A stretch of 64,000 nucleotides of DNA, from the NCBI GenBank assembly GCA_050951585.1, contig JBMNJI010000005.1, positions 16,206 through 80,205 on the forward strand, in the 5' to 3' direction. The stretch is from Peptococcia bacterium (GTDB taxonomy: Bacteria; Bacillota; Peptococcia; DRI-13; DTU073). The position numbers were made by a program, and so were the translations under genes. Within the stretch, counting starts at the first letter, position 1; the number at the start of each line of letters is the position of its first letter. Below the pieces are notes generated by a model, which did not search any database, was not told the origin of the DNA, and was given only the letters and a program-made list of their open reading frames with translations. Positions 33,544-43,283 of this stretch are shown here, one piece after another.

Positions 33544-33645
33544 GGAGGCGATCGGTAAGAGAATTCTGTTAAAGGATTTAACAGGACAGCAAAAGTTGAT
33601 GCAATCTTTTTACTGAAAAAATAGGAATTGAAGGGAGTAATGAAA

Positions 33646-34312
33646 ATGAAAAAAACAAGAATGTTACTTGCTACTCTGGTTTGTGCTGTAATGCTGATGG
33701 GCGTTGGCTACGCCGCATGGTCTGATTCGGTTACCTTGGCAGGAACGGTGAATACCGGGGAACTGAATGTACGTTTTGAAAATGATCAGTTTGAGCCATT
33801 TGTTCCTACCACATATGCAAGTGGTTATGCGACGGCAGTTTTCAACAAACTTGAAGAAGAGAATATTGAATTCACTTTTGACAAATTACACCCCGGAGTC
33901 GTTGGCGTTGTTGATGTAGCCGTTAAAAATGCCGGTGATTTTCCGGCTAAATTAGCTAATGCAACTGTAATCACTACGGGTGATGAAGTATTAAAAGACG
34001 ATATTTATGTGCAGGCCTTGTATTACAAAATGGGAACCAACGGTTTACCTGTCTGGGAACATTCAACGCTACCCCATATGTTTCTCTTGATCAATTAGAG
34101 ACAACTTTAGAAAATGCTTTAAGTGCTTTTGAATTGGCACCCGGGGAATCAATTGTCTTTGGTGTTCCGGAAGGCGAAGAATCAACTCTTGATTTAAACA
34201 ATGACGGTGTAAATGAAGAGTGCTTTATCTTCTACTTTGACTATGATTCCGGTAATGAAACAATGGATAAGACCATTACTATTGATTTAGAGATGGATTG
34301 GGAAATTGCGTA
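33646..34312 (+). CDS. TasA/camelysin-like secreted protein A (SipW-type signal peptide); one frameshift near 34060-34080
   Basis: AAGGGAG RBS, then ATG 33646. MKKTRMLLATLVCAVMLMGVGYAAWSDS. Internal LHPGVVGVVDVAVKNAGDFP. The shifted frame continues ..NATPYVSLDQLE..ITIDLEMDWEIA to TAA 34312. Confidence 0.8.
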
Positions 34313-34349
34313 ATCACTAATACGGCGCTGAATTGAATTATCATCCTGC

Positions 34350-34381
34350 AGACCCGCCACCTTTTTGGCGGGTCTTTTTTT
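34350..34381 (+). terminator. Strong rho-independent terminator after gene A
   Basis: Stem AGACCCGCC / GGCGGGTCT followed by T7. Confidence 0.8.
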
Positions 34382-34559
34382 AGCTATGAGGGAGTATTAG
34401 TTTTGGGTAATACAAAGATTATTTCCGGACAAGCCTAATAACGACAATATATACAGAAAAAGTAAGATATAATATTAAACAGTATAGAAAGACAAAGTCA
34501 AAGTAATCTATTATTCTGCTCTTTACTTTATCTAAAGTTGAATGGGAGGGTTATTGGCG

Positions 34560-35194
34560 ATGAGACGATATCTGATACTATTATTGGGTTGCGTCTTCTG
34601 GGGTTTGGCGATAGTGCCGGGGGTATATTCTTCCTGGCAGGACCAGTTATACATCAGAGGGGAAATCCGGCTAAATGATGTTTCTCCTCTACGTTCTGTC
34701 GAACAGGGATCAGACTCAAATCTAGCACGGAAAGTGGATGAACATAAAGGTACTGTGGCGGGGACGGGAGAAGTGCCGGACCATAAAGCGGAGGAAGGGA
34801 GAGGTTGCGGAAGAACTGGAGACGGGATTTCAAGCAGTGCCTGCAGCAGTGTTCGAGGGCAGTACCCGAAGCAGGAATTAAAGAAAGCCTTCCAGTGAGC
34901 GAGCCGGTTGTAGCAGAAACGACAGGAGGCAGTGCAACGGCAGATTCGGCAGTAACCGGGGAAGACCCTGGGCAGGATCCAAGCGAGGCGATAACTAATA
35001 CTGTAACTGATGATATCATCGGAGATACAGCAGGGGAAGCAACCGAAGAAATAACCGAAAGCAGGGGTGAAACAGCAGGGGAAGCAGCTTCTGAAACAGT
35101 CGAGAAAAGCGCTGATGTAAAGGCGGAGAATGAAAACAATAATGCGGCGGCAGAAGCAGGAGGAGAAATGGAAACCGGCGCTGGAGCAGAATGA
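34560..35194 (+). CDS. Signal-peptide/N-terminal-strand-only protein B with an acidic low-complexity tail; probably two frameshifts (~34800, ~34865)
   Basis: GGGAGGG RBS, then ATG 34560. MRRYLILLLGCVFWGLAIVPGVYSSWQDQLYIRGEI. The three reading frames join as ..EEGR/EVAEELETGFQAVPAAVFEGST/PEAGIKESLPVSEP.. into a T/G/E/A/D-rich tail ending at 35194. Confidence 0.55.
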
Positions 35195-35261
35195 AGCACA
35201 AAAAGTCGCAAGAATAATTATTATAGAAGAAAATGTAAATTAAAATTTTCAGCTATTCTTA

Positions 35262-35296
35262 AAGGACTGTCCCGATGTGGCCAGTCCTTTATTTTA
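35262..35296 (+). terminator. Terminator after gene B
   Basis: Stem AAGGACTG / CAGTCCTT followed by a T-rich tract. Confidence 0.7.
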
Positions 35297-35398
35297 AGTA
35301 TTATAGAAAAGAATAAAATATTTTTTAATTAGCAACTAAAAACGACAAAAATTTCAATTGCGATTATATATAATATCTAGTAATATAATGTCTAGTAA

Positions 35399-35974
35399 GT
35401 GAAAAAGGGAGAGGCGGAATCAATTGTGCGTTTTTTCTATCCACTTTTCAGTATAATCTTCATATTCTGCATGGGCGGGTTTGGGATCAGTTACGCCACC
35501 TGGAGTGATACCTTAACATTAGAAAGCACCGTATCTACCGGTTATATTAATACCATTTTTACTGATGCTGAATTATCAAAGAACGGCAATGAGGGAGAAG
35601 GGAAAGGAAATTGTCGGGGGGGATCTGGTTCAGACGCGGATTTTGGAACAGTTGTTATTGATGAAGACGGCAAGAGTCTTTTGGTCAGCATAAAGGAAAA
35701 AGGGAACTACTATCTGGATTTTACGCTTGAAAATAAAGGGACATTACCTGTCGAAATTGAGATTCCTGATACGAAGGGAAAAAAGCCCGATGGCGAAGGA
35801 CAAGCCATTAAGATAGAGTTTAAGGATAAAGGAAATAAAGAGGACCGGATACTATTCGTTGATGACAGTATGCAAGGTCGTATGGAGATAAAAGTGCAAC
35901 CTCCTCATTGGAAAGATGGTTTGGAGGGTAACTTTTCAGTTACGCTCGAATCTCGCCAGGCGAGTCTTAAATAA
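35399..35974 (+). CDS. TasA/camelysin-like secreted protein C
   Basis: ..FIFCMGGFGISYATWSDTLTLESTVSTG. Internal YYLDFTLENKGTLPVEIEI. The start is GTG 35399 or in-frame GTG 35426. Confidence 0.7.
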   Translation: MKKGEAESIVRFFYPLFSIIFIFCMGGFGISYATWSDTLTLESTVSTGYINTIFTDAELSKNGNEGEGKGNCRGGSGSDADFGTVVIDEDGKSLLVSIKEKGNYYLDFTLENKGTLPVEIEIPDTKGKKPDGEGQAIKIEFKDKGNKEDRILFVDDSMQGRMEIKVQPPHWKDGLEGNFSVTLESRQASLK

Positions 35975-36125
35975 ACAGGCGCTAAGTTGATATTTGAGGT
36001 GCAATAATTTATAAGGGGGGAGTACATCAATATTAAGGAGATAAGAGAAGCACCTTTAATTAAATTGACAGCATTGTAAATTCAGAAAAGTATATAGTTT
36101 TTAAAACGAAGGGAGATCAAAAACA

Positions 36126-36653
36126 ATGAAAAAAGCAAGACTTTTAATTGCTGCATTAGTATGTGCAGTAATGATGATGGGAGTAGGTTATGCCTTATTT
36201 AACGACACTACTGTTGTATCTGCAACAGCAAAGGCGGGTAACTTTGATGTGGATTTTATTGACGCAAGAGGTCCAGTGGAAGTTAGTCCCGAAAATGTAA
36301 GAGTTTACCTTGATAGAGATAATTGTGATCAGGATTTACTCCATTGCACAATTAGTGGTATATTTCCAGGTCAGACGGTAGTAATCCCCATTCCTGTTAA
36401 AAACAACTGTGCGGTAGGAGCAAAATTAGTTAATGTTGAGTGTAAACGTGTTAACGGAGACTGGGGCTTATATAATCAATTCCAGATTTCTGGTGAGAAT
36501 AATAAAAAAATAGCTGCTGGGGCAAGTGACACCTGTAATTTAACAGTTATGTTAAATAGTGAAACTGATACCAAATACCAAGAACAAACGGTTGAGTTCA
36601 CAGTAGATCTAGAATGGGAACAATACCTAAAGACAATAAATACCCAATCGTAA
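36126..36653 (+). CDS. TasA/camelysin-like secreted protein D
   Basis: AAGGGAG RBS. MKKARLLIAALVCAVMMMGVGYALFNDT. IFPGQTVVIPIPVKNNCAVGAKL. C-terminal VEFTVDLEWEQ. Confidence 0.85.
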   Translation: MKKARLLIAALVCAVMMMGVGYALFNDTTVVSATAKAGNFDVDFIDARGPVEVSPENVRVYLDRDNCDQDLLHCTISGIFPGQTVVIPIPVKNNCAVGAKLVNVECKRVNGDWGLYNQFQISGENNKKIAAGASDTCNLTVMLNSETDTKYQEQTVEFTVDLEWEQYLKTINTQS

Positions 36654-36679
36654 ACATAACCTAACTATGTCTTTTAATT

Positions 36680-36713
36680 GCAGGATGGGCAAATGCTCAT
36701 TTACCCATCCTGC
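36680..36713 (+). repeat. Conserved 34-nt hairpin, copy 1 (after gene D)
   Basis: GCAGGATGGGCAAAT-gctc-ATTTACCCATCCTGC. It has no downstream U-tract; an A-run follows instead. Confidence 0.75.
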
Positions 36714-36757
36714 CGTAAAAAAATTTATATTTACTTAATGAAGGGAGAACAAAAGTA

Positions 36758-37303
36758 ATGAAGAGAGCAAGGATTTTAATTGCCACATTAGTGTGTGCAG
36801 TAATGATGATGGGAGTAGGTTATGCAGCATTTACCGACAGTCTAAAATTAAATGCATCACTGGCAACGGGTACTATGAATGTAATTTACGGAACAGATAC
36901 AAAAGTTGATAGAGCTGACAGTGAAGTAGTAGCTACTGTTACACGTTCTGACGATAAGAAGACCCTTGATTGCACAATTGCAAACTTATATCCTGGGCGG
37001 GGTGCAGTTTTTAGCATTCAGGTGAAAAATCTGAGTGGTGTGCCTGTAAGCTATACCAACTGTATACCTACCGGATTAAGCGAGTACGAAAAGAGCATTC
37101 TTGATTTTGATTTCGCTAGAGATGATTACAACGCTGAGATTCCGGCAAACGGTGAGCGCACTTATAAGGTTTTCGTCAGACTGAGCGAAGACGTTGATAA
37201 TACTGTGCAAAACAAAACTTATACATTTCAACTTAGATTTGATTGGGAACAAGTTATTCAAGACAGTGTAACCCAAGGTTTACCTATAGGATCCGCGAGT
37301 TAA
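36758..37303 (+). CDS. TasA/camelysin-like secreted protein E (close paralog of D)
   Basis: AAGGGAG RBS. MKRARILIATLVCAVMMMGVGYAAFTDS. LYPGRGAVFSIQVKNLSGVPVSY. C-terminal YTFQLRFDWEQ. Confidence 0.85.
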   Translation: MKRARILIATLVCAVMMMGVGYAAFTDSLKLNASLATGTMNVIYGTDTKVDRADSEVVATVTRSDDKKTLDCTIANLYPGRGAVFSIQVKNLSGVPVSYTNCIPTGLSEYEKSILDFDFARDDYNAEIPANGERTYKVFVRLSEDVDNTVQNKTYTFQLRFDWEQVIQDSVTQGLPIGSAS

Positions 37304-37340
37304 TTAGTATTGTCTGAACTGAGGTTTAATTCCGTTGGGT

Positions 37341-37374
37341 GCAGGATGGGCAAATGCTCATTTGCCCATCCTGC
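37341..37374 (+). repeat. Conserved 34-nt hairpin, copy 2 (after gene E)
   Basis: GCAGGATGGGCAAAT-gctc-ATTTGCCCATCCTGC, a perfect 15-bp stem that is near-identical to 36680..36713. Confidence 0.75.
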
Positions 37375-37433
37375 CATAATAAAAACTATATTAATTTGAG
37401 AGTGCTTAGCGTACAATTGGAGGTTATCTCGTC

Positions 37434-38342
37434 ATGAAAAAATATATTACTATTATAATGATATGTTCGTTCCTGGGATTAGCAATGATTCCGGGAGTAT
37501 ACTCCGCTTGGGGAGAATCGTTACAGATCACGGGAACTGTGCAGATAGGCGAAGACGACATTGAATGCCCTATTCCGGAGTGTAAAAGGATATGGAACTT
37601 AATATTAGCGATGCTTAATGATATTGATAAATGTTCCTTAAGGGATCTTCTCGCTTGTGAAGACGATTTTGACATAGCTGCATTAATAGCGTTTCTTGAA
37701 GACATAGACAGTATTGATGATGGCATTATAAGCAACCTTAAATGGCTAGAAGGTTTTAATTTCGGCGGTTTTTCCGGTTCTAATGGAACGATGATGCTTG
37801 CCGGTGGGGACATGGAAATGATGACAATTCCGCAGGAAACACAACAGCCAGCCGCACCGCCTGTACAGGCGCCCTCGATGCCACCGGAAGGAGGGCAGGA
37901 TATTGCGGATAATCATAAGGGAAATACTGCCCAGGAGCGTACAACGGGGGATACAGCGGGAGGACCAGCGGATGCTGGTGACACCGGCGACAACGGACAG
38001 CAAACTGAGGATAATATAACGGATAATACCGGCGGCGCTGATCTTCTCGGCGCAGGTGATCCTGTTGGTGCAGATGATATTGTCGATGATGGCAATGATG
38101 TAGCCGGTACAGGGAATGACACTATTTCCAAAGGTAATGATCCTGTCCCTGAGACAACGGGGGAAAGCGGCCGGGAAGATGGGACGGCAGAGAGCGGTGC
38201 CGGTGATAAGAGCGGTTCCGGGAGCGCAGAAGGAAACAGTGATGATACCGGCAATAAAACCAATGAAGGAAACAGCGCTGGTGGCGCTGGCAACGATGGG
38301 GAATCCGGTGCAGGGAACAGTGATAGTACGATAGAGGAGTGA
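37434..38342 (+). CDS. Signal-peptide/N-terminal-strand protein F with a Cys-containing helical segment and a ~170 aa acidic G/D/T/N/E-rich tail
   Basis: GGAGG RBS. MKKYITIIMICSFLGLAMIPGVYSAWGESLQITGTVQIG. The tail has no hydrophobic core. Confidence 0.75.
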   Translation: MKKYITIIMICSFLGLAMIPGVYSAWGESLQITGTVQIGEDDIECPIPECKRIWNLILAMLNDIDKCSLRDLLACEDDFDIAALIAFLEDIDSIDDGIISNLKWLEGFNFGGFSGSNGTMMLAGGDMEMMTIPQETQQPAAPPVQAPSMPPEGGQDIADNHKGNTAQERTTGDTAGGPADAGDTGDNGQQTEDNITDNTGGADLLGAGDPVGADDIVDDGNDVAGTGNDTISKGNDPVPETTGESGREDGTAESGAGDKSGSGSAEGNSDDTGNKTNEGNSAGGAGNDGESGAGNSDSTIEE

Positions 38343-38411
38343 GCAGAGGGGAAATTAGCAAAAATAAATGAAAAACACAGGGGGACAACCGGGTTTGACG
38401 GATGGAGGCTT

Positions 38412-38654
38412 TTGCTGCTGAGAAAATATCTGAGATTGATTCTGCTTTGTGTTATTGGCGGGCTGTTGCTGATTCCGGGCACCGATGGGAGTTGGAATCA
38501 GGTCCTGGATGTGGAGGGGCTCGTGAGGCTTCCGGATAATTACATATTTGATGAGGTAGTGAGTCAAGATGGCCATAAGGCGCTGGATTTTGCTAGGGAT
38601 GGTTTCGTTCATGATTATACTGACGAATACGAACCTCATTCCCTTGACGAATAA
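38412..38654 (+). CDS. Small signal-peptide/N-terminal-strand protein G
   Basis: MLLRKYLRLILLCVIGGLLLIPGTDGSWNQVLDVEGLVRL shares the motif of B and F. The TTG start has poor SD spacing, so the start is uncertain. Confidence 0.5.
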   Translation: MLLRKYLRLILLCVIGGLLLIPGTDGSWNQVLDVEGLVRLPDNYIFDEVVSQDGHKALDFARDGFVHDYTDEYEPHSLDE

Positions 38655-39735
38655 TATTAATTTTATCTATTTTGGACGACCACTTCTATGGTTCGGTGTG
38701 GCCGCGACAGTATACTGCTTTCCGCGCACCAGGGCAGCCGGCCGTTTGAGTTTACGCCGCTTTGTGCTTAATTTGGCGATTGGGGCAGCGGTTATCAATA
38801 TCCTCTTTATGATGGTGGGGGGAATGATTACGGGCTTGGGCAAAAGCCCTTATGCGGTGGGACTGGTCACTTCAACGATTAATTTTATATACATTTCCTG
38901 TTTTGTGCTGGGACTGGAGGCAACACGCTCGTTTTTAGTCAACAGTTATAAAGGGAAAAGAGCATATCTTACAATTGCCCTAGTCAGTTTTTTCTATTTG
39001 TTTACTGAAATCTCTTTGGGGGAAATTCTGAATTTTAGTAACGGTTTAGAGTTTGTGCGTTTTTTTGGGAGTGAGTTTTTACCTGCTTTGGCCCAGAGTA
39101 TTTTAACTACCTATTTTGCTTTTCTGGGCGGATTTGCTCCGGCGGCGGTATTTCACGGGATTTTGCTGGCTTTCGAATGGTTCAGCCCGATCTTACCTGA
39201 TTTAACGTGGCCGATGAAAACTTTTCTGGGTTGCTTCATTCCAGCTTTTTCCCTGCTGGTGGTGCGGCATTTCTATCTGTTACAGGCCCACCAGATCAAA
39301 AGAAATTCTTCAGAAAGTGAAGAATTATTCGGCTGGCTGGTGACGAGTATTATTTCGGTAGCGCTGATTTGGTTTGCCGTCGGTATTTTCCCGATTTATC
39401 CTTCCGTGATTGTCACCGGTAGTATGGAACCAATGATCAAACCGGGCGATCTTGTTTTGGTGCAAAAAATCGACGGGGAGAAGGTTTGTCTCAATGATGT
39501 GATTCAGTATTATGATCCCGAAAGGGAGATTAGTATAACCCATCGGGTAATTGCCATTAATCGGACAGACAAGATAACGCTGACGACCAAGGGAGACAAT
39601 AACACATCTGCAGATACGGATTCGGTTTTATTAGGACAGGTAAAGGGAAAGGTCCTTAAGGTTGTCCCCAAAATGGGTTGGCTGACCCTTTTCTTAAGGA
39701 GTAATCAGCCGATTCCGGAAGGGGTAGAGAATTAA
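38569..39735 (+). CDS. Polytopic membrane domain fused to a SipW-type (ER/archaeal-type) signal peptidase I
   Basis: C-terminal VTGSMEPMIKPGDLVLVQK, ITHRVI and TKGDNN match the Ser-His SipW class. The N-terminal ~270 aa hold about six hydrophobic helices. The start is uncertain (ATG 38569/38599 or TTG 38644), and the ORF overlaps gene G. Confidence 0.8.
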   Translation: MAIRRWILLGMVSFMIILTNTNLIPLTNNINFIYFGRPLLWFGVAATVYCFPRTRAAGRLSLRRFVLNLAIGAAVINILFMMVGGMITGLGKSPYAVGLVTSTINFIYISCFVLGLEATRSFLVNSYKGKRAYLTIALVSFFYLFTEISLGEILNFSNGLEFVRFFGSEFLPALAQSILTTYFAFLGGFAPAAVFHGILLAFEWFSPILPDLTWPMKTFLGCFIPAFSLLVVRHFYLLQAHQIKRNSSESEELFGWLVTSIISVALIWFAVGIFPIYPSVIVTGSMEPMIKPGDLVLVQKIDGEKVCLNDVIQYYDPEREISITHRVIAINRTDKITLTTKGDNNTSADTDSVLLGQVKGKVLKVVPKMGWLTLFLRSNQPIPEGVEN

Positions 39736-39767
39736 CACGAGGAAAGTGTTTGATAGGGGGAGTTTCA

Positions 39768-40946
39768 ATGGTAGAACTGGTAAAAAAGGTCAAAAAAGTC
39801 GGGATGCCGTATCAGCTTAGGCTTTTCTTGCTCAGTATTGTTTCGGTGGTCTTCCTCGCTTTACTTGCTGCGCTTCTGGTGAACAGCATGGGTCCGCGCA
39901 CGGAGGAGCAGGAGATTACGAATTATCAGTATCACCAAAAGGGGGAAATCACCTATGAGGTCGCTTTAAACGATAATCTGCTATACGGGAACAAGGTCCT
40001 GGGCATGAATAATGTTTATCCTTCTAAATATGTGAAACAGGTTACGGCCGATCTGAAATATGATTTTAACGGTAATAAGCGTGGCACAGTCTCCGGGCAA
40101 TACATGGTTGTGGCCACGGTTCAAGGCATTCAAATGGAAAACCAGGCGGAAAAAGTTTTGTGGAGTAAAGATTTTGTCCTAGAACCGGCGACACCCTTTT
40201 CGGATGAGGTCACGGAAACAAGCCGGGTCATTATGCAGAAAAAGCTGGTGATCCCGTTCCAGGACTTTAATGCGTTTGCGCTCCAGGTGCAGCAGGATAC
40301 CGGGATTCTCTCCAGTGTTGCTTTAAAAGTGAAGTGCCTGATCAAGACAGAGGCGGAGACGGAATACGGGATGATTCAGGAAGAGCTCACGCCCGGTTTT
40401 CGCTTGCCTTTGTGCATGACCTATTTTGAGATTACAGGAGATTTGACCCAGGAGAAGGAAGGGGCTTTGACGGAAACAGTCATGCAAAATATTCCTCCTA
40501 ACCGCACTCTGTTAAGGGTTTTGGGAGGCGGCGCCGCCCTTTGTTTGCTGTTGCTTTTGGGGTTGCTCTTCTTTGTCCGGGGAACCAAACCGGATGCATA
40601 TCAAAAGCGGATTAAGGAGATCTTTAAAAAATATGAGGAAAGACTTGTTGCTTTAGGACAGGAATTACCGGGAGACGCGGCGGTCGGAAAGAAGGGGACT
40701 GTTAGTACGGAGAAGTATATCCGGGTGAAAACGGTCGACGACTTGGTCCGTGTCGCCGATGAAATAAGTCGGCCGGTCTATTATCTGGAGCGGGGACTTG
40801 CGGGGGAGAAAGGTTTCACCTTTTATGTCATCAGTGAAACGAATATCTTTACTTATGAGCTTAAGCCGACTCCGGGCAGTAAGACTTCCCCTATGCAGGA
40901 GGAGCAATATCCCCAAAAGCCGGGACAACAAGACATCAAACTCTAG
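39768..40946 (+). CDS. Bitopic membrane protein, DUF5305-like
   Basis: GGGGGAG RBS, then ATG 39768. N-terminal TM (LFLLSIVSVVFLALLAALLV), a ~210 aa extracytoplasmic domain, a second TM (GGGAALCLLLLLGLLFFV), then a ~115 aa cytoplasmic tail. The family assignment is by recall of the architecture and its adjacency to a signal peptidase. Confidence 0.65.
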   Translation: MVELVKKVKKVGMPYQLRLFLLSIVSVVFLALLAALLVNSMGPRTEEQEITNYQYHQKGEITYEVALNDNLLYGNKVLGMNNVYPSKYVKQVTADLKYDFNGNKRGTVSGQYMVVATVQGIQMENQAEKVLWSKDFVLEPATPFSDEVTETSRVIMQKKLVIPFQDFNAFALQVQQDTGILSSVALKVKCLIKTEAETEYGMIQEELTPGFRLPLCMTYFEITGDLTQEKEGALTETVMQNIPPNRTLLRVLGGGAALCLLLLLGLLFFVRGTKPDAYQKRIKEIFKKYEERLVALGQELPGDAAVGKKGTVSTEKYIRVKTVDDLVRVADEISRPVYYLERGLAGEKGFTFYVISETNIFTYELKPTPGSKTSPMQEEQYPQKPGQQDIKL

Positions 40947-40999: not shown

Positions 41000-41150
41000 A
41001 TGGAGAGCATTATATTTAGTGACAATTGCGGCGATTAATCTAATCGCCGCTTTTCTTATGGGGCTGGGTATCCCCTTTTTCCAATAGGGATGCCTTGTTT
41101 GCTCGCCTTTAATATGGTCTGCTTTTATTACCTGAAGGGCAAGACTTTCT
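41000..41150 (+). pseudogene. Internally deleted remnant of a DUF1294 gene
   Basis: GGGAGAG RBS plus ATG 41000. Blocks 41028-41060 and ~41072-41139 match the intact copy at 43266-43300 and ~43433-43500 (last 68 nt ~91% identical). About 125 nt of the middle are missing. Confidence 0.6.
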
Positions 41151-41264: not shown

Positions 41265-43283
41265 ATGAATTTTCTTTCGATGGGAAAAAGGCATAGGGTG
41301 TTGGTTTTGCCGTTGCTGCTTTTCTGTTTGCTTTGACTGACTGTATGTACAGAGGAGGTAGCTGCTTTTAGTGGTACAGGGAGCGGAGGCATAGCTGATC
41401 CGTACATAATATTGACGGCGGAGCAATTGAATGAAGTCAGAGAGGAGCTGACCGCTCACTATCAGTTAGGGGCTGATATTGACCTGAGTGTATATGAAAA
41501 TTGGGTGCCAATTGGGGATTGGGAAAACAGTTTTACCGGTTCTTTTGATGGCAACGGTTATGTCATTAGTAATATGACCATCGATATGCCTGAGGAATAT
41601 TATTTAGGTTTATTTGGAGTTGCGTGGGGCGGGTCTTCATTAAACAACGTAAAATTAGAAAATGCAAGTGTGGTTGGAGCCGGATGTGTTGGAGGTTTAG
41701 CAGGAGATTGCGCAGCAAATACGGTAAATAACTGTTCAGTAAGGGGTAGGGTAACTGCACTCAGCGATTCTTATGCGGGTGGGCTGATTGGGGGAAGCTC
41801 CAGCGAAGTCAACAACTGTTATATGATCGGAGAAGTAGCAGGCAGAAGTGCGACAGGTGGACTACTGGGCGGAAATAACAATGAGATTAGAAACTGTTAT
41901 GCGATAGTTAGTGTATCTGCACCGGCATCTAATTATGTGGGTGGTTTGGTTGGAGAGAATAACGATAGCATTATAGACTGTTATGCTGTCAGCGCGGTAA
42001 TTGGTAATCGACAGGTGGGAGGTTTGGTCGGGCGCAATAGTGATGTAATTAGGAACTGTTTTTCCGTTGGCAGTGTAGAAGGAGTGAATTATTGCGGTGG
42101 ATTAGCCGGTACATCTTCTTATATGGCAGAAAACTGTTATAGCCATAGTAGCGTGTCAGGAAGTACTAATACCGGTGGTTTAATTGGGGCCGATTCTGCT
42201 ACAATTACGAATTGTTATGCTGCCGGGTTGGTGACCGGTGAAGGCGAAAACTTTGGCGGATTATGCGGCGATGCTGATTCTATTATCACTTCCTCCTATT
42301 ACGACTCAGATACTACCGGGCAGACCGATGAAGGAAAGGGTGTCGGAAAAACAACGGATGAAATGCAACAGCAAGGTACTTTTGGCGGCTGGGATTTTGC
42401 TGAGGTTTGGGGACTGGTTGCCGGGAAGAATGATGGTTATCCGTATTTGTTAGCTTTTGCGGATAATGAGGCGGATTTAGCTGATTTATCCGTGAGTGCG
42501 GGGACCTTAAGCCCGGTTTTTGCTGACACGGAACGGGATTACACGGTCAATGTGGCATACGGTACGGCTGTTTTGCAGGTAGTTCCCGAGTGTGAGGCTG
42601 AGACTGCTTCATTAGCGGTTACTGTCAACGGAGAAACCGTATCCGCGACTGAAGATGCTTATGCGGCGCCCCTCAATGTGGGGGAAAACCTGATCCGGAT
42701 TGTGGTCACAGCGGAAGATGAGATGACCGGTACGGTCTACCGGCTTAGGGTTAACCGGGGCGAGGCGGATACAAACGCGGATTTGGCTGGTTTATCCTTA
42801 AATGAAGGTAATGTGCCGTTAGAGTTTACCGGAGATATAACCGGTTATAATCTTACGGTAAGTAACAAGGTGCGCAGCCTGTCGGTGAAGCCGGTAACCG
42901 TAGAGGAGACGGCCGTCGTGACAGTCAATGGGGTAGCAGTTAGCAGTGGGGAAAACTCAGAGCCGATTGCCCTGCGGACTGGCAGTAATGTGGTCACCAT
43001 TCAGGTTGTGGCCGAAGATGGGACGGAAAAAACATATACATTGAACATCAAGCGAAAACACAAATCGCAGACCAGCACAACGAGCATAACCGAAGAAACC
43101 GAAGAACAGCAAACCCCGGAAGAAGAGGGACAAGCTGACAACCAGGCAAGTAACGATGATTCCGGACTAGCCGATAACCACAAAAAACCAGGCAGTACTG
43201 GATATGACAATATTCAATGGGGAGAATTTATAAAATGGCTACTTTCAAATCTTTCGAAATTGGCATTGTTGCGATTAATCTAA
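41265..43283 (+). CDS. Secreted GLUG-repeat protein with cadherin-like beta-sandwich domains; in-frame TGA at 41334-41336 inside the signal peptide
   Basis: ATG 41265 is in the same frame as the 41412 ORF (MNFLSMGKRHRVLVLPLLLFCLL*LTVCTEE..). Repeated GGLAG/GGLIG/GGLVG..NCY units, then ADLADLSVSAGTLSPVF and ADLAGLSLNEGNVPLEF domains. Confidence 0.7.

Follow-up and report, generated by a model that had tools for sequence, protein, structure and literature searches.

Fibres of the TasA superfamily (TasA, AbpA, AbpX, tafi and the archaeal threads) hold bacterial and archaeal biofilms together and polymerise by donor-strand complementation. We know of no chaperone-usher-like assembly machinery for these fibres, and to our knowledge nothing is conserved alongside them except a dedicated signal peptidase and, at many loci, a protein of the DUF5305 family. 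Here we describe a signal peptidase gene at 38569..39735 on the + strand of a 64,000-nucleotide stretch of DNA (the window) from a Peptococcia bacterium (GenBank assembly GCA_050951585.1, contig JBMNJI010000005.1, positions 16,206 to 80,205). As had been proposed in an earlier reading of the window from its letters alone (the sequence-only reading), the gene is a single open reading frame (ORF) in which a signal peptidase of the ER/archaeal type (SEC11/SipW class) is fused to a polytopic membrane domain of about 250-270 residues. With moderate confidence, we explain it as a signal peptidase dedicated to an AbpX-like donor-strand fibre locus of the TasA superfamily, in which the N-terminal domain (N-domain) would serve as a non-catalytic dock for signal-anchor helices.

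The closest described enzyme is the signal peptidase I (SPase I) of abpX loci. In a January 2026 preprint (bioRxiv 10.64898/2026.01.04.697558) this enzyme is reported to have ten transmembrane (TM) helices instead of two, with no function given for the extra helices; the DUF5305 protein is regarded there as a likely accessory subunit of SPase I, and AbpX is characterized by an aromatic residue at mature position 2, an acidic residue at position 4 and an isoelectric point (pI) near 4. The architecture itself is thus already known. The window locus resembles it in that the gene for a polytopic SPase I has genes for acidic, AbpX-like donor-strand subunits and for DUF5305 as neighbours. The preprint also names the locus of Natronincola peptidivorans DSM 18979, which contains a homologue (L058; N-domain E 1e-36, 31% identity) that is fused to a Peptidase_S26 (S26) domain and has DUF5305 nearby. 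The Natronincola ferrireducens homologue has the same locus layout, together with an SLH-domain protein (SLH anchor). The preprint, however, only counts helices and is silent on fold, conserved residues, distribution and function, and our model of the window protein shows nine complete TM helices and a short helix at the C-terminus (371-377) rather than ten clear TM helices. What appears to be new, from sequence comparison and structural modelling, is the fold assignment, a conserved Glu/Arg pair, the fusion statistic of 80/80 loci and a set of variants in which the domain is fused to subunit-like proteins. No relevant paper was found in the literature on signal peptidase with CPBP and TasA, or on SipW with CAAX.

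Two further fibre systems have a dedicated peptidase of this type. Bacillus subtilis SipW, encoded with TasA and TapA, is likewise an ER/archaeal-type Ser-His peptidase in the operon of its TasA-family subunit, and its substrates carry an aromatic residue at P2'. The SipW model, however, has 189 residues and lacks an eight-helix domain, and the partner in the window is DUF5305 rather than TapA. Equivalence to Bacillus SipW was not borne out by profile either, since the SipW equivalog (NF046067) scored 59.7 bits, under its cut-off of 190. In the haloarchaeal tafi system, TafD is genetically required for the processing of TafA and pairs with the DUF5305 protein TafG, so that here too a dedicated SPase I and a DUF5305 protein occur in a TasA-superfamily fibre locus. 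TafD, by contrast, is predicted to cross the membrane four times, carries a second extracellular domain and lacks the eight-helix N-domain, and its substrates use the Tat pathway.

Three other systems bear on the domains of the fused protein. SpdC of Staphylococcus aureus (6u0o) is an eight-TM CAAX-protease homologue that acts as the non-catalytic scaffold of the single-pass extracellular hydrolase SagB; the TM helix of SagB lies against TM3 of SpdC, the catalytic domain of SagB sits on the TM3-TM4 loop, and SpdC may let the lipid tail of the substrate in through a lateral opening. Proteases of the CPBP family such as Rce1 and MrtX (4cad; PF02517) carry EExxxR in TM4 and HxxxN in TM7, and a further TM5 His bridges the catalytic water together with the Glu; the mechanism requires both the TM5 His, which activates water with the Glu, and the TM7 HxxxN oxyanion hole (PMC11980579). 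Among solved structures, human SEC11A and SEC11C (7p2p, 7p2q) are the nearest relatives of the catalytic domain and share its Ser-His-Asp residues. They belong to the signal peptidase complex, where accessory membrane subunits surround the catalytic anchor, a conceptual likeness to the N-domain with DUF5305 that follows the preprint's own analogy. These accessory helices are, however, separate polypeptides (SPC12, SPC25 and SPC22/23) unrelated to CPBP, whereas the module in the window is fused in cis.

The peptidase ORF is uninterrupted over 388 codons, encoding 388 residues followed by a stop. The motifs quoted in the sequence-only reading are present exactly as stated, with GSMEP at residues 284-288, THR at 324-326, TKGDNN at 340-345, GLEATRSF at 115-122 and AAVFHGILLAFEW at 192-204. 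The position of the start codon required closer comparison. An upstream ORF of 80 codons (38412..38654) shares 86 nt (38569-38654) with the beginning of the peptidase gene, and owing to this overlap public metagenome gene calls truncate the peptidase; the public call for the window protein (P0001) starts at Met15 (38611) and yields 374 residues, dropping an Arg-Arg pair and half of TM1. A homologue of 82% identity (P0002, locus L004) begins at the equivalent of Met1 without any upstream overlap (MTVRRWALLG, compared with MAIRRWILLG in the window protein), and the DNA similarity between the two loci starts close to the Met1 ATG. Because the L004 gene starts there without an overlap, and because a start at Met15 would cut TM1, Met1 at 38569 is accepted as the true start on comparative grounds.

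These details could be turned into a case for an artefact, in which a frameshift or an overlooked stop has merged two genes, or in which the N-terminal region is not translated. The gene callers disagree on the start (374 versus 388 residues), the first 86 nt overlap another ORF, and the cluster contains at least one real frameshift elsewhere. We give this explanation practically no credence and reject it, as the fusion is conserved as a single uninterrupted ORF in 80/80 species genomes from several phyla and in 125/149 representative clusters. In addition, the full-length model has a predicted TM-score (pTM) of 0.80, and L004 supports Met1. The strong conservation of the N-terminal region in more than 600 full-length homologues means that it is a real domain and not a mis-joined ORF.

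The first protein search returned 631 matches, nearly all of them full-length at about 400 residues and named 'signal peptidase I' where they were named. A profile of the N-domain, run against 1.84 billion representative sequences, matched 1257 clusters at E <= 1e-3 and 809 at E <= 1e-10. The S26 domain was also present in 125 of the 149 best clusters, most of the others being truncated or frameshifted calls. A single N-domain peptide pattern, the TM7-TM8 loop motif, recovered 211 species genomes. The closest genomes are metagenome-assembled genomes (MAGs) of Peptococcaceae/Peptococcia at 59-67% identity, and the remaining taxa comprise Clostridia, Heliobacteria, Moorellales, Syntrophomonadaceae, Tissierellia, Dehalococcoidia/Chloroflexota, MAGs labelled Deltaproteobacteria and one Bathyarchaeia archaeon. 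For locus statistics, 80 loci were fetched, one per species genome. The N-domain and the S26 domain lay within one ORF in all 80, a DUF5305 gene was located no more than 6 kb away in 74, and 64 had a same-strand ORF with a signal-peptide and donor-strand motif; several of the loci without a motif-bearing ORF were contigs of 2-5 kb. Such ORFs made up 138 of the 916 on the same strand, compared with 15 of the 985 on the opposite strand. No split version, in which the N-domain and the peptidase would be encoded as separate neighbours, turned up in these searches, and most short matches were fragments or frameshifted calls. The sequence-only reading had allowed that the fusion might turn out to be a common, annotated signal peptidase I architecture whose extension has a known role. 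The architecture is indeed common and is annotated as signal peptidase I, but no role has been assigned to the extension.

By profile and alignment, residues 272-388 (39382..39732, + strand) are an intact signal peptidase I domain of the SEC11/SipW Ser-His-Asp class. NCBIfam TIGR02228 (archaeal-type signal peptidase I) matched residues 268-377 with 78.2 bits against a cut-off of 51.85, while Pfam Peptidase_S26 was just over threshold (24.4 against 22.9). The family profile matches human SEC11A and SEC11C at E ~1e-18 with Ser285, His325 and Asp349 in register; by alignment to SEC11A, the corresponding codons lie at 39421-39423, 39541-39543 and 39613-39615 on the + strand. Ser285 falls within GSMEP, and the general base is a His (H325 in HR) rather than a Lys. 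In an alignment of 224 family sequences, extending down to 25% identity and used for all conservation figures given here, S285, H325, D343 and D349 are each 100% conserved. Foldseek searches with the full-length model matched the SEC11 chains 7p2p_A and 7p2q_A (E ~8e-5, probability 1.00, TMt 0.61-0.64). A ninth TM helix (TM9, residues 249-271; 39313..39381, + strand), placed by the AlphaFold2 model, hydropathy and conservation, is the membrane anchor of the peptidase. It is unusually conserved for such an anchor (W256, W268 and F269), and the positive-inside rule predicts that it tethers a catalytic domain located outside the membrane. In three homologues (P0202, P0207 and P0234) an extra C-terminal domain follows the peptidase, consisting of three LysM repeats, an SdrD_B/SpaA-like domain or a CBM96 domain, which suggests tethering of the enzyme to the cell wall or to polysaccharide.

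Structural models of the protein were built with AlphaFold2 from an alignment of 115 sequences. The full-length model has a mean confidence (pLDDT) of 87.7, and that of the N-domain alone (residues 1-248) has a pLDDT of 90.6 and a pTM of 0.88. In the model, the N-domain (38569..39312, + strand) is a bundle of eight helices (2-20, 30-50, 60-88, 99-126, 132-147, 159-187, 189-205 and 214-247); the anchor helix, a beta-rich catalytic domain and the short C-terminal helix follow. AlphaFold2 and hydropathy thus place nine TM helices ahead of the catalytic domain (the anchor and the eight helices of the N-domain), so that the 'about six' of the sequence-only reading was an undercount. The distribution of Lys and Arg among the loops fits an N-in topology, in which the TM3-TM4 loop, the TM7-TM8 loop and the catalytic domain are all outside.

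Conservation within the N-domain is concentrated in a few places. The TM3-TM4 loop, which together with TM9 is among the most conserved segments, reads G-L-G-K-S-P-Y (residues 89-95; 38833..38853, + strand) and is predicted to be extracytoplasmic by the positive-inside rule (G91 98%, S93 93%, P94 99%, Y95 90%). The TM7-TM8 loop, S-P-I-L-P-D-L (residues 206-212; 39184..39204, + strand), would face the same side and is also conserved (P207 100%, L209 98%, P210 98%). DSSP assigns short strands to residues 90-92 and 208-210 of the model. Within TM4, Glu117-x-x-Arg120 (38917..38928, + strand) is conserved at 99% and 100%, respectively, N105 is near-invariant, and so are several Gly, Pro and Trp residues of the N-domain. 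The membrane-embedded polar residues flagged in the sequence-only reading therefore divide into two sets: Glu117 and Arg120 of GLEATRSF are invariant, but the His of AAVFHGILLAFEW is kept in only 11% of the sequences. There is no conserved His in the N-domain (H196 11%, H203 27%), and position 195, a Tyr in the family, accepts Phe, including in the window protein.

No Pfam or NCBIfam match was obtained for residues 1-257, which take in the N-domain, and the affinities of the domain were sought by fold. When Foldseek was run with the full-length model, the peptidase domain dominated and Rce1 appeared only at rank 19; the N-domain was therefore modelled again on its own. Against 350,542 PDB chains, this model gave three high-probability matches, all of them CPBP/Abi proteins. 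The best was 6u0o_A from the SagB-SpdC complex, with a TM-score of 0.58 under both normalisations, all 248 residues aligned, a probability of 1.00 and an E-value of 0.086; we infer that this chain is SpdC from its length of 248 residues (construct SpdC 1-256), its fold and the place of Rce1 next in the ranking. The other two were chains of Methanococcus Rce1 (4cad; TM-score 0.44-0.45, probability 0.87-0.89). All remaining PDB matches had probabilities of 0.21 or less and TM-scores of 0.25 or less, transporters reaching at most 0.2. A fold search of viral models (BFVD) returned unnamed matches with TM-scores of about 0.49 and was uninformative. The suggestion that the domain loosely recalls CPBP proteins thus holds at the level of fold, where SpdC and Rce1 are the sole confident PDB matches, and does not hold in the sequence and profile tests or for the histidine motifs. 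Its companion suggestion, a sortase-like enzyme, was set aside, and sortase, exosortase and archaeosortase types were all rejected as candidates: there is no conserved Cys or His and no NCBIfam or Pfam match, and the subunits lack a C-terminal sorting signal.

Compared with the CPBP motifs themselves, the resemblance is partial. The invariant E117-x-x-R120 lies in TM4, the helix of CPBP motif 1 in Rce1 and MrtX, and may correspond to EExxxR; the N-domain has, however, a single Glu and a shorter spacing (ExxR rather than ExxxR). Motif 2 (FxxxH, TM5) and motif 3 (HxxxN/D, TM7) are missing, with no conserved His in TM5 or TM7. A gene for a separate CPBP protein was not found by motif search in the window or in the 80 fetched loci. 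On the strength of the model, the N-domain has a CPBP/SpdC-like fold with at most a remnant of motif 1, and is not to be filed as a member of the CPBP family.

An active enzyme is nevertheless one way to read this pattern. The N-domain could be an intramembrane protease, a variant of the glutamic endopeptidases of the CPBP family that does without the histidines and relies on Glu117. It would then either clear the cleaved signal peptide from the membrane, as a signal-peptide peptidase built into the enzyme, or cut the subunit precursor a second time. The near-complete conservation of E117 and R120 in the very helix that carries EExxxR in Rce1 and MrtX speaks for such a variant, as do the invariance of N105, the Rce1-like fold and the persistence of these motifs in variants that lack a fused S26 domain. 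It conflicts with the dependence of the known CPBP mechanism on the TM5 His and the TM7 HxxxN, with the tolerance of Phe at Y195 and the altered Glu-Arg spacing, with the absence of any detected sequence or profile similarity to CPBP, and with SpdC, a non-catalytic family member, being the best structural match. We therefore consider a proteolytic N-domain rather improbable.

Several results weigh against our preferred explanation of a CPBP-fold dock, and most of them concern the link to CPBP. This link is by fold alone, in a predicted structure, and the Foldseek E-values of the CPBP-type matches are weak (0.086 and 0.26). None of 115 family members matched PF02517 in Pfam at E-values up to 10, and PDB sequence searches with the N-domain, alone or as a profile, gave no informative match. 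An hhalign comparison of the N-domain with a haloarchaeal Rce1-like family gave probabilities of 0.13-0.8% (under 1% throughout), although the low-diversity profile makes this a weak test. That family was seeded by a Halorussus protein (E 1e-12 to 4cad), and its 31 aligned members all belong to PF02517; the CPBP seed genes were located on plasmids with a constructed CPBP consensus query, which recovered annotated CPBP genes and found nothing in the PDB. Given the negative hhalign result, homology to CPBP is not established by sequence. Furthermore, the invariance of E117 and R120, kept even where no peptidase is fused, would also fit a catalytic role.

If the fold resemblance were fortuitous, the eight helices would be a convergent bundle unrelated to CPBP, for example one that transports or channels subunits or calcium, or one that binds lipid. 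The uniformly negative sequence-level CPBP tests and the weak Foldseek E-values speak for such convergence. We nonetheless judge it improbable, given that only CPBP-family entries reach high probability among all the PDB chains searched, that the best of them covers the whole domain (248 residues, TM-score 0.58), that transporters do not exceed a TM-score of 0.2, and that an invariant Glu/Arg pair sits on TM4 as it does in CPBP proteins.

The genomic setting of the gene was described by the sequence-only reading as a cluster of TasA-like fibre subunits, and the neighbouring ORFs agree with this description. From 33628 to 40946 every gene is on the + strand. Four subunits of jelly-roll size start at 33628, 35399, 36126 and 36758, and three proteins composed of a signal peptide, a donor strand and an acidic tail start at 34542, 37434 and 38412. 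All seven ORFs upstream of the peptidase share one distinctive signal peptide, ending in G-x-G/S-Y-A or P-G-V-Y-S, and a donor-strand motif, with predicted mature N-termini of AWSD, TWSD, LFND, AFTD, AWGE, SWQD and SWNQ. The six mature forms analysed have a pI of 4.05-4.70 and an Asp plus Glu content of 14-26%, in agreement with the preprint's description of AbpX. Because of the shared signal-peptide motif, the co-encoded precursors are the predicted substrates of the peptidase.

The first of these genes (33628..34313) encodes a TasA/AbpX-like subunit, but a frameshift of 1 nt breaks it into two ORFs, 33628-34098 and 34134-34313. The frame switches near 34053-34055, after LPVW, at a GGG run in which GGGG would restore the frame; an intact homologue (L001 4346-5005, 219 residues) reads LVWGTFGITPYVPLNQL. 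A sequencing error or a slippage site could account for the frameshift, or the gene could be a pseudogene. A strong terminator-like hairpin lies at 34350-34375, after the split gene. The next ORF (34542-34898) encodes a signal peptide and the donor strand SWQDQLYIRGEI, and an overlapping ORF (34805-35194) encodes an acidic tail rich in Thr, Glu and Gly; together they resemble a single frameshifted gene of the 37434 type. Three subunit genes follow (35399-35974, 36126-36653 and 36758-37303, all on the + strand), with weak matches to TIGR04088 ('cognate_SipW') and with signal peptides that end in G-x-G/S-Y-A; beyond this end, position +2 is aromatic and position +4 acidic. Two genes for proteins with signal peptide, donor strand and acidic tail (37434-38342 and 38412-38654, + strand) lead up to the peptidase, the second overlapping its start.

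Small acidic-tail proteins of this kind recur next to the peptidase gene, directly upstream of it in the window, in L001 (7546-7986) and in L003 (7362-7979), and further upstream in L004 (4322-4771). They have a SipW-type signal peptide, a donor-strand-like N-terminus (e.g. AWGESLQITGTV) and a long acidic low-complexity tail, without a jelly-roll body. As donors of a strand that accept none themselves, such proteins could serve as caps, nucleators or anchors of the fibre.

Fourteen nucleotides downstream of the peptidase gene is a DUF5305 gene (39750..40946, + strand; Pfam PF17231, E 4.6e-27), a putative accessory subunit of the peptidase, a role suggested for DUF5305 proteins both in the preprint and in the work on tafi. 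A DUF5305 gene also adjoins the peptidase gene in L001-L007. A terminator-like hairpin follows it at 41028..41050 (+ strand; consensus scan only), where the operon likely ends. Beyond this point, a 623-residue protein (41412-43283) carries GLUG repeats and two cadherin-like beta-sandwich domains. It occupies the same position in L006 and L007, and other genes are found there in L005. As called it has no signal peptide, although its start may be wrong, and it is possibly an adhesin or anchor of the fibre system.

Variants in which the N-domain is joined to a subunit-like protein indicate that its role extends beyond the peptidase. Three representative proteins (P0186, P0210 and P0227) retain the N-domain with the Glu/Arg pair, GKSPY and SPILP intact and have no S26 domain. 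After helix 8 they continue into a Lys-rich linker and then a segment of signal peptide and donor strand like those of the subunits (e.g. KKTNKRLTPLFLSILITFSICTLAY followed by SHWTDTIDISGTV); the donor strand reads LAYSHWTDT... and is succeeded by Ig-like domains or a dockerin. Genes for P0210 and P0186 were located at L088 8001-9479, L089 1478-2956 and L090 4115-5539, with P0210 present on two independent contigs. At the two loci examined, AbpX-like subunit genes and an HTH_45 regulator were neighbours, and no S26 or DUF5305 gene was found within the short flanks. The HTH_45 family leads us to assume that the variant contigs are probably of archaeal origin. In these variants a substrate-type signal anchor sits where TM9 sits in the peptidase fusion. 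The function of the domain is therefore tied to the signal-anchor helices of the fibre family and not to the peptidase alone.

The same variants bring up a role in assembly. The sequence-only reading had suggested that the fused module could couple cleavage to export, anchoring or polymerisation of the subunits. The N-domain may mainly be an assembly or anchoring platform that, with DUF5305, holds the membrane-proximal end of the growing fibre or hands freshly cleaved donor strands to the next subunit; it would then be the assembly machinery that these fibres, which have no chaperone, have seemed to lack. With their covalent link between the domain and a subunit-like protein that has a donor strand and Ig-like domains or a dockerin, the variants look like a membrane-tethered base subunit. 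The obligate association of the domain with subunits and DUF5305 agrees with this, as does the facing of the conserved outer loops towards the assembly side. Recombinant AbpX, on the other hand, self-assembles in vitro without machinery (bioRxiv 10.64898/2026.01.04.697558), and a platform overlaps with the dock that we prefer, from which it is computationally inseparable. As a principal function, we think it unlikely, though credible.

Our preferred explanation, the non-catalytic dock, can be set out as a sequence of steps. The N-domain would be a degenerate CPBP/Abi-fold module that has lost both histidine motifs and, by analogy with SpdC and the hydrolase SagB, would act as a non-catalytic scaffold. 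SpdC and SagB are, unlike the fused protein, separate proteins that act on lipid-linked peptidoglycan, and SpdC has no detectable sequence similarity to the N-domain. We propose that the N-domain packs on TM9 and keeps the catalytic domain at a set height above the GKSPY and SPILPDL loops. A membrane-open cavity lined by Glu117 and Arg120 of TM4 could then dock the hydrophobic signal-anchor helix of a subunit precursor, and perhaps also its Lys/Arg-rich N-region, and this docking would give substrate specificity and fix the register of cleavage. By cleaving the precursors, the peptidase would free the N-terminal donor strand needed for polymerisation.

A bolder account would make the N-domain and DUF5305 together the membrane machinery of TasA/AbpX-type fibres, which would capture precursor anchors in the cavity of Glu117 and Arg120, set the cleavage register for the fused peptidase and couple donor-strand release to insertion into a growing, tethered fibre, or would make the N-domain a new histidine-independent intramembrane protease. 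This is a speculative prospect that we doubt; were the former correct, the subunit-fused variants would be a built-in fibre base.

A large branch of these systems, with more than 1,000 sequence clusters from some archaea as well as several bacterial phyla, always has its peptidase joined to an eight-helix domain shaped like SpdC and Rce1. The invariant Glu/Arg pair and the subunit-fused variants make this domain a concrete candidate for substrate selection, and perhaps for the coupling of assembly to secretion. If the scaffold role is correct, the family would provide a second example, after SagB-SpdC, of a CAAX-protease-like bundle that scaffolds a single-pass extracellular enzyme.

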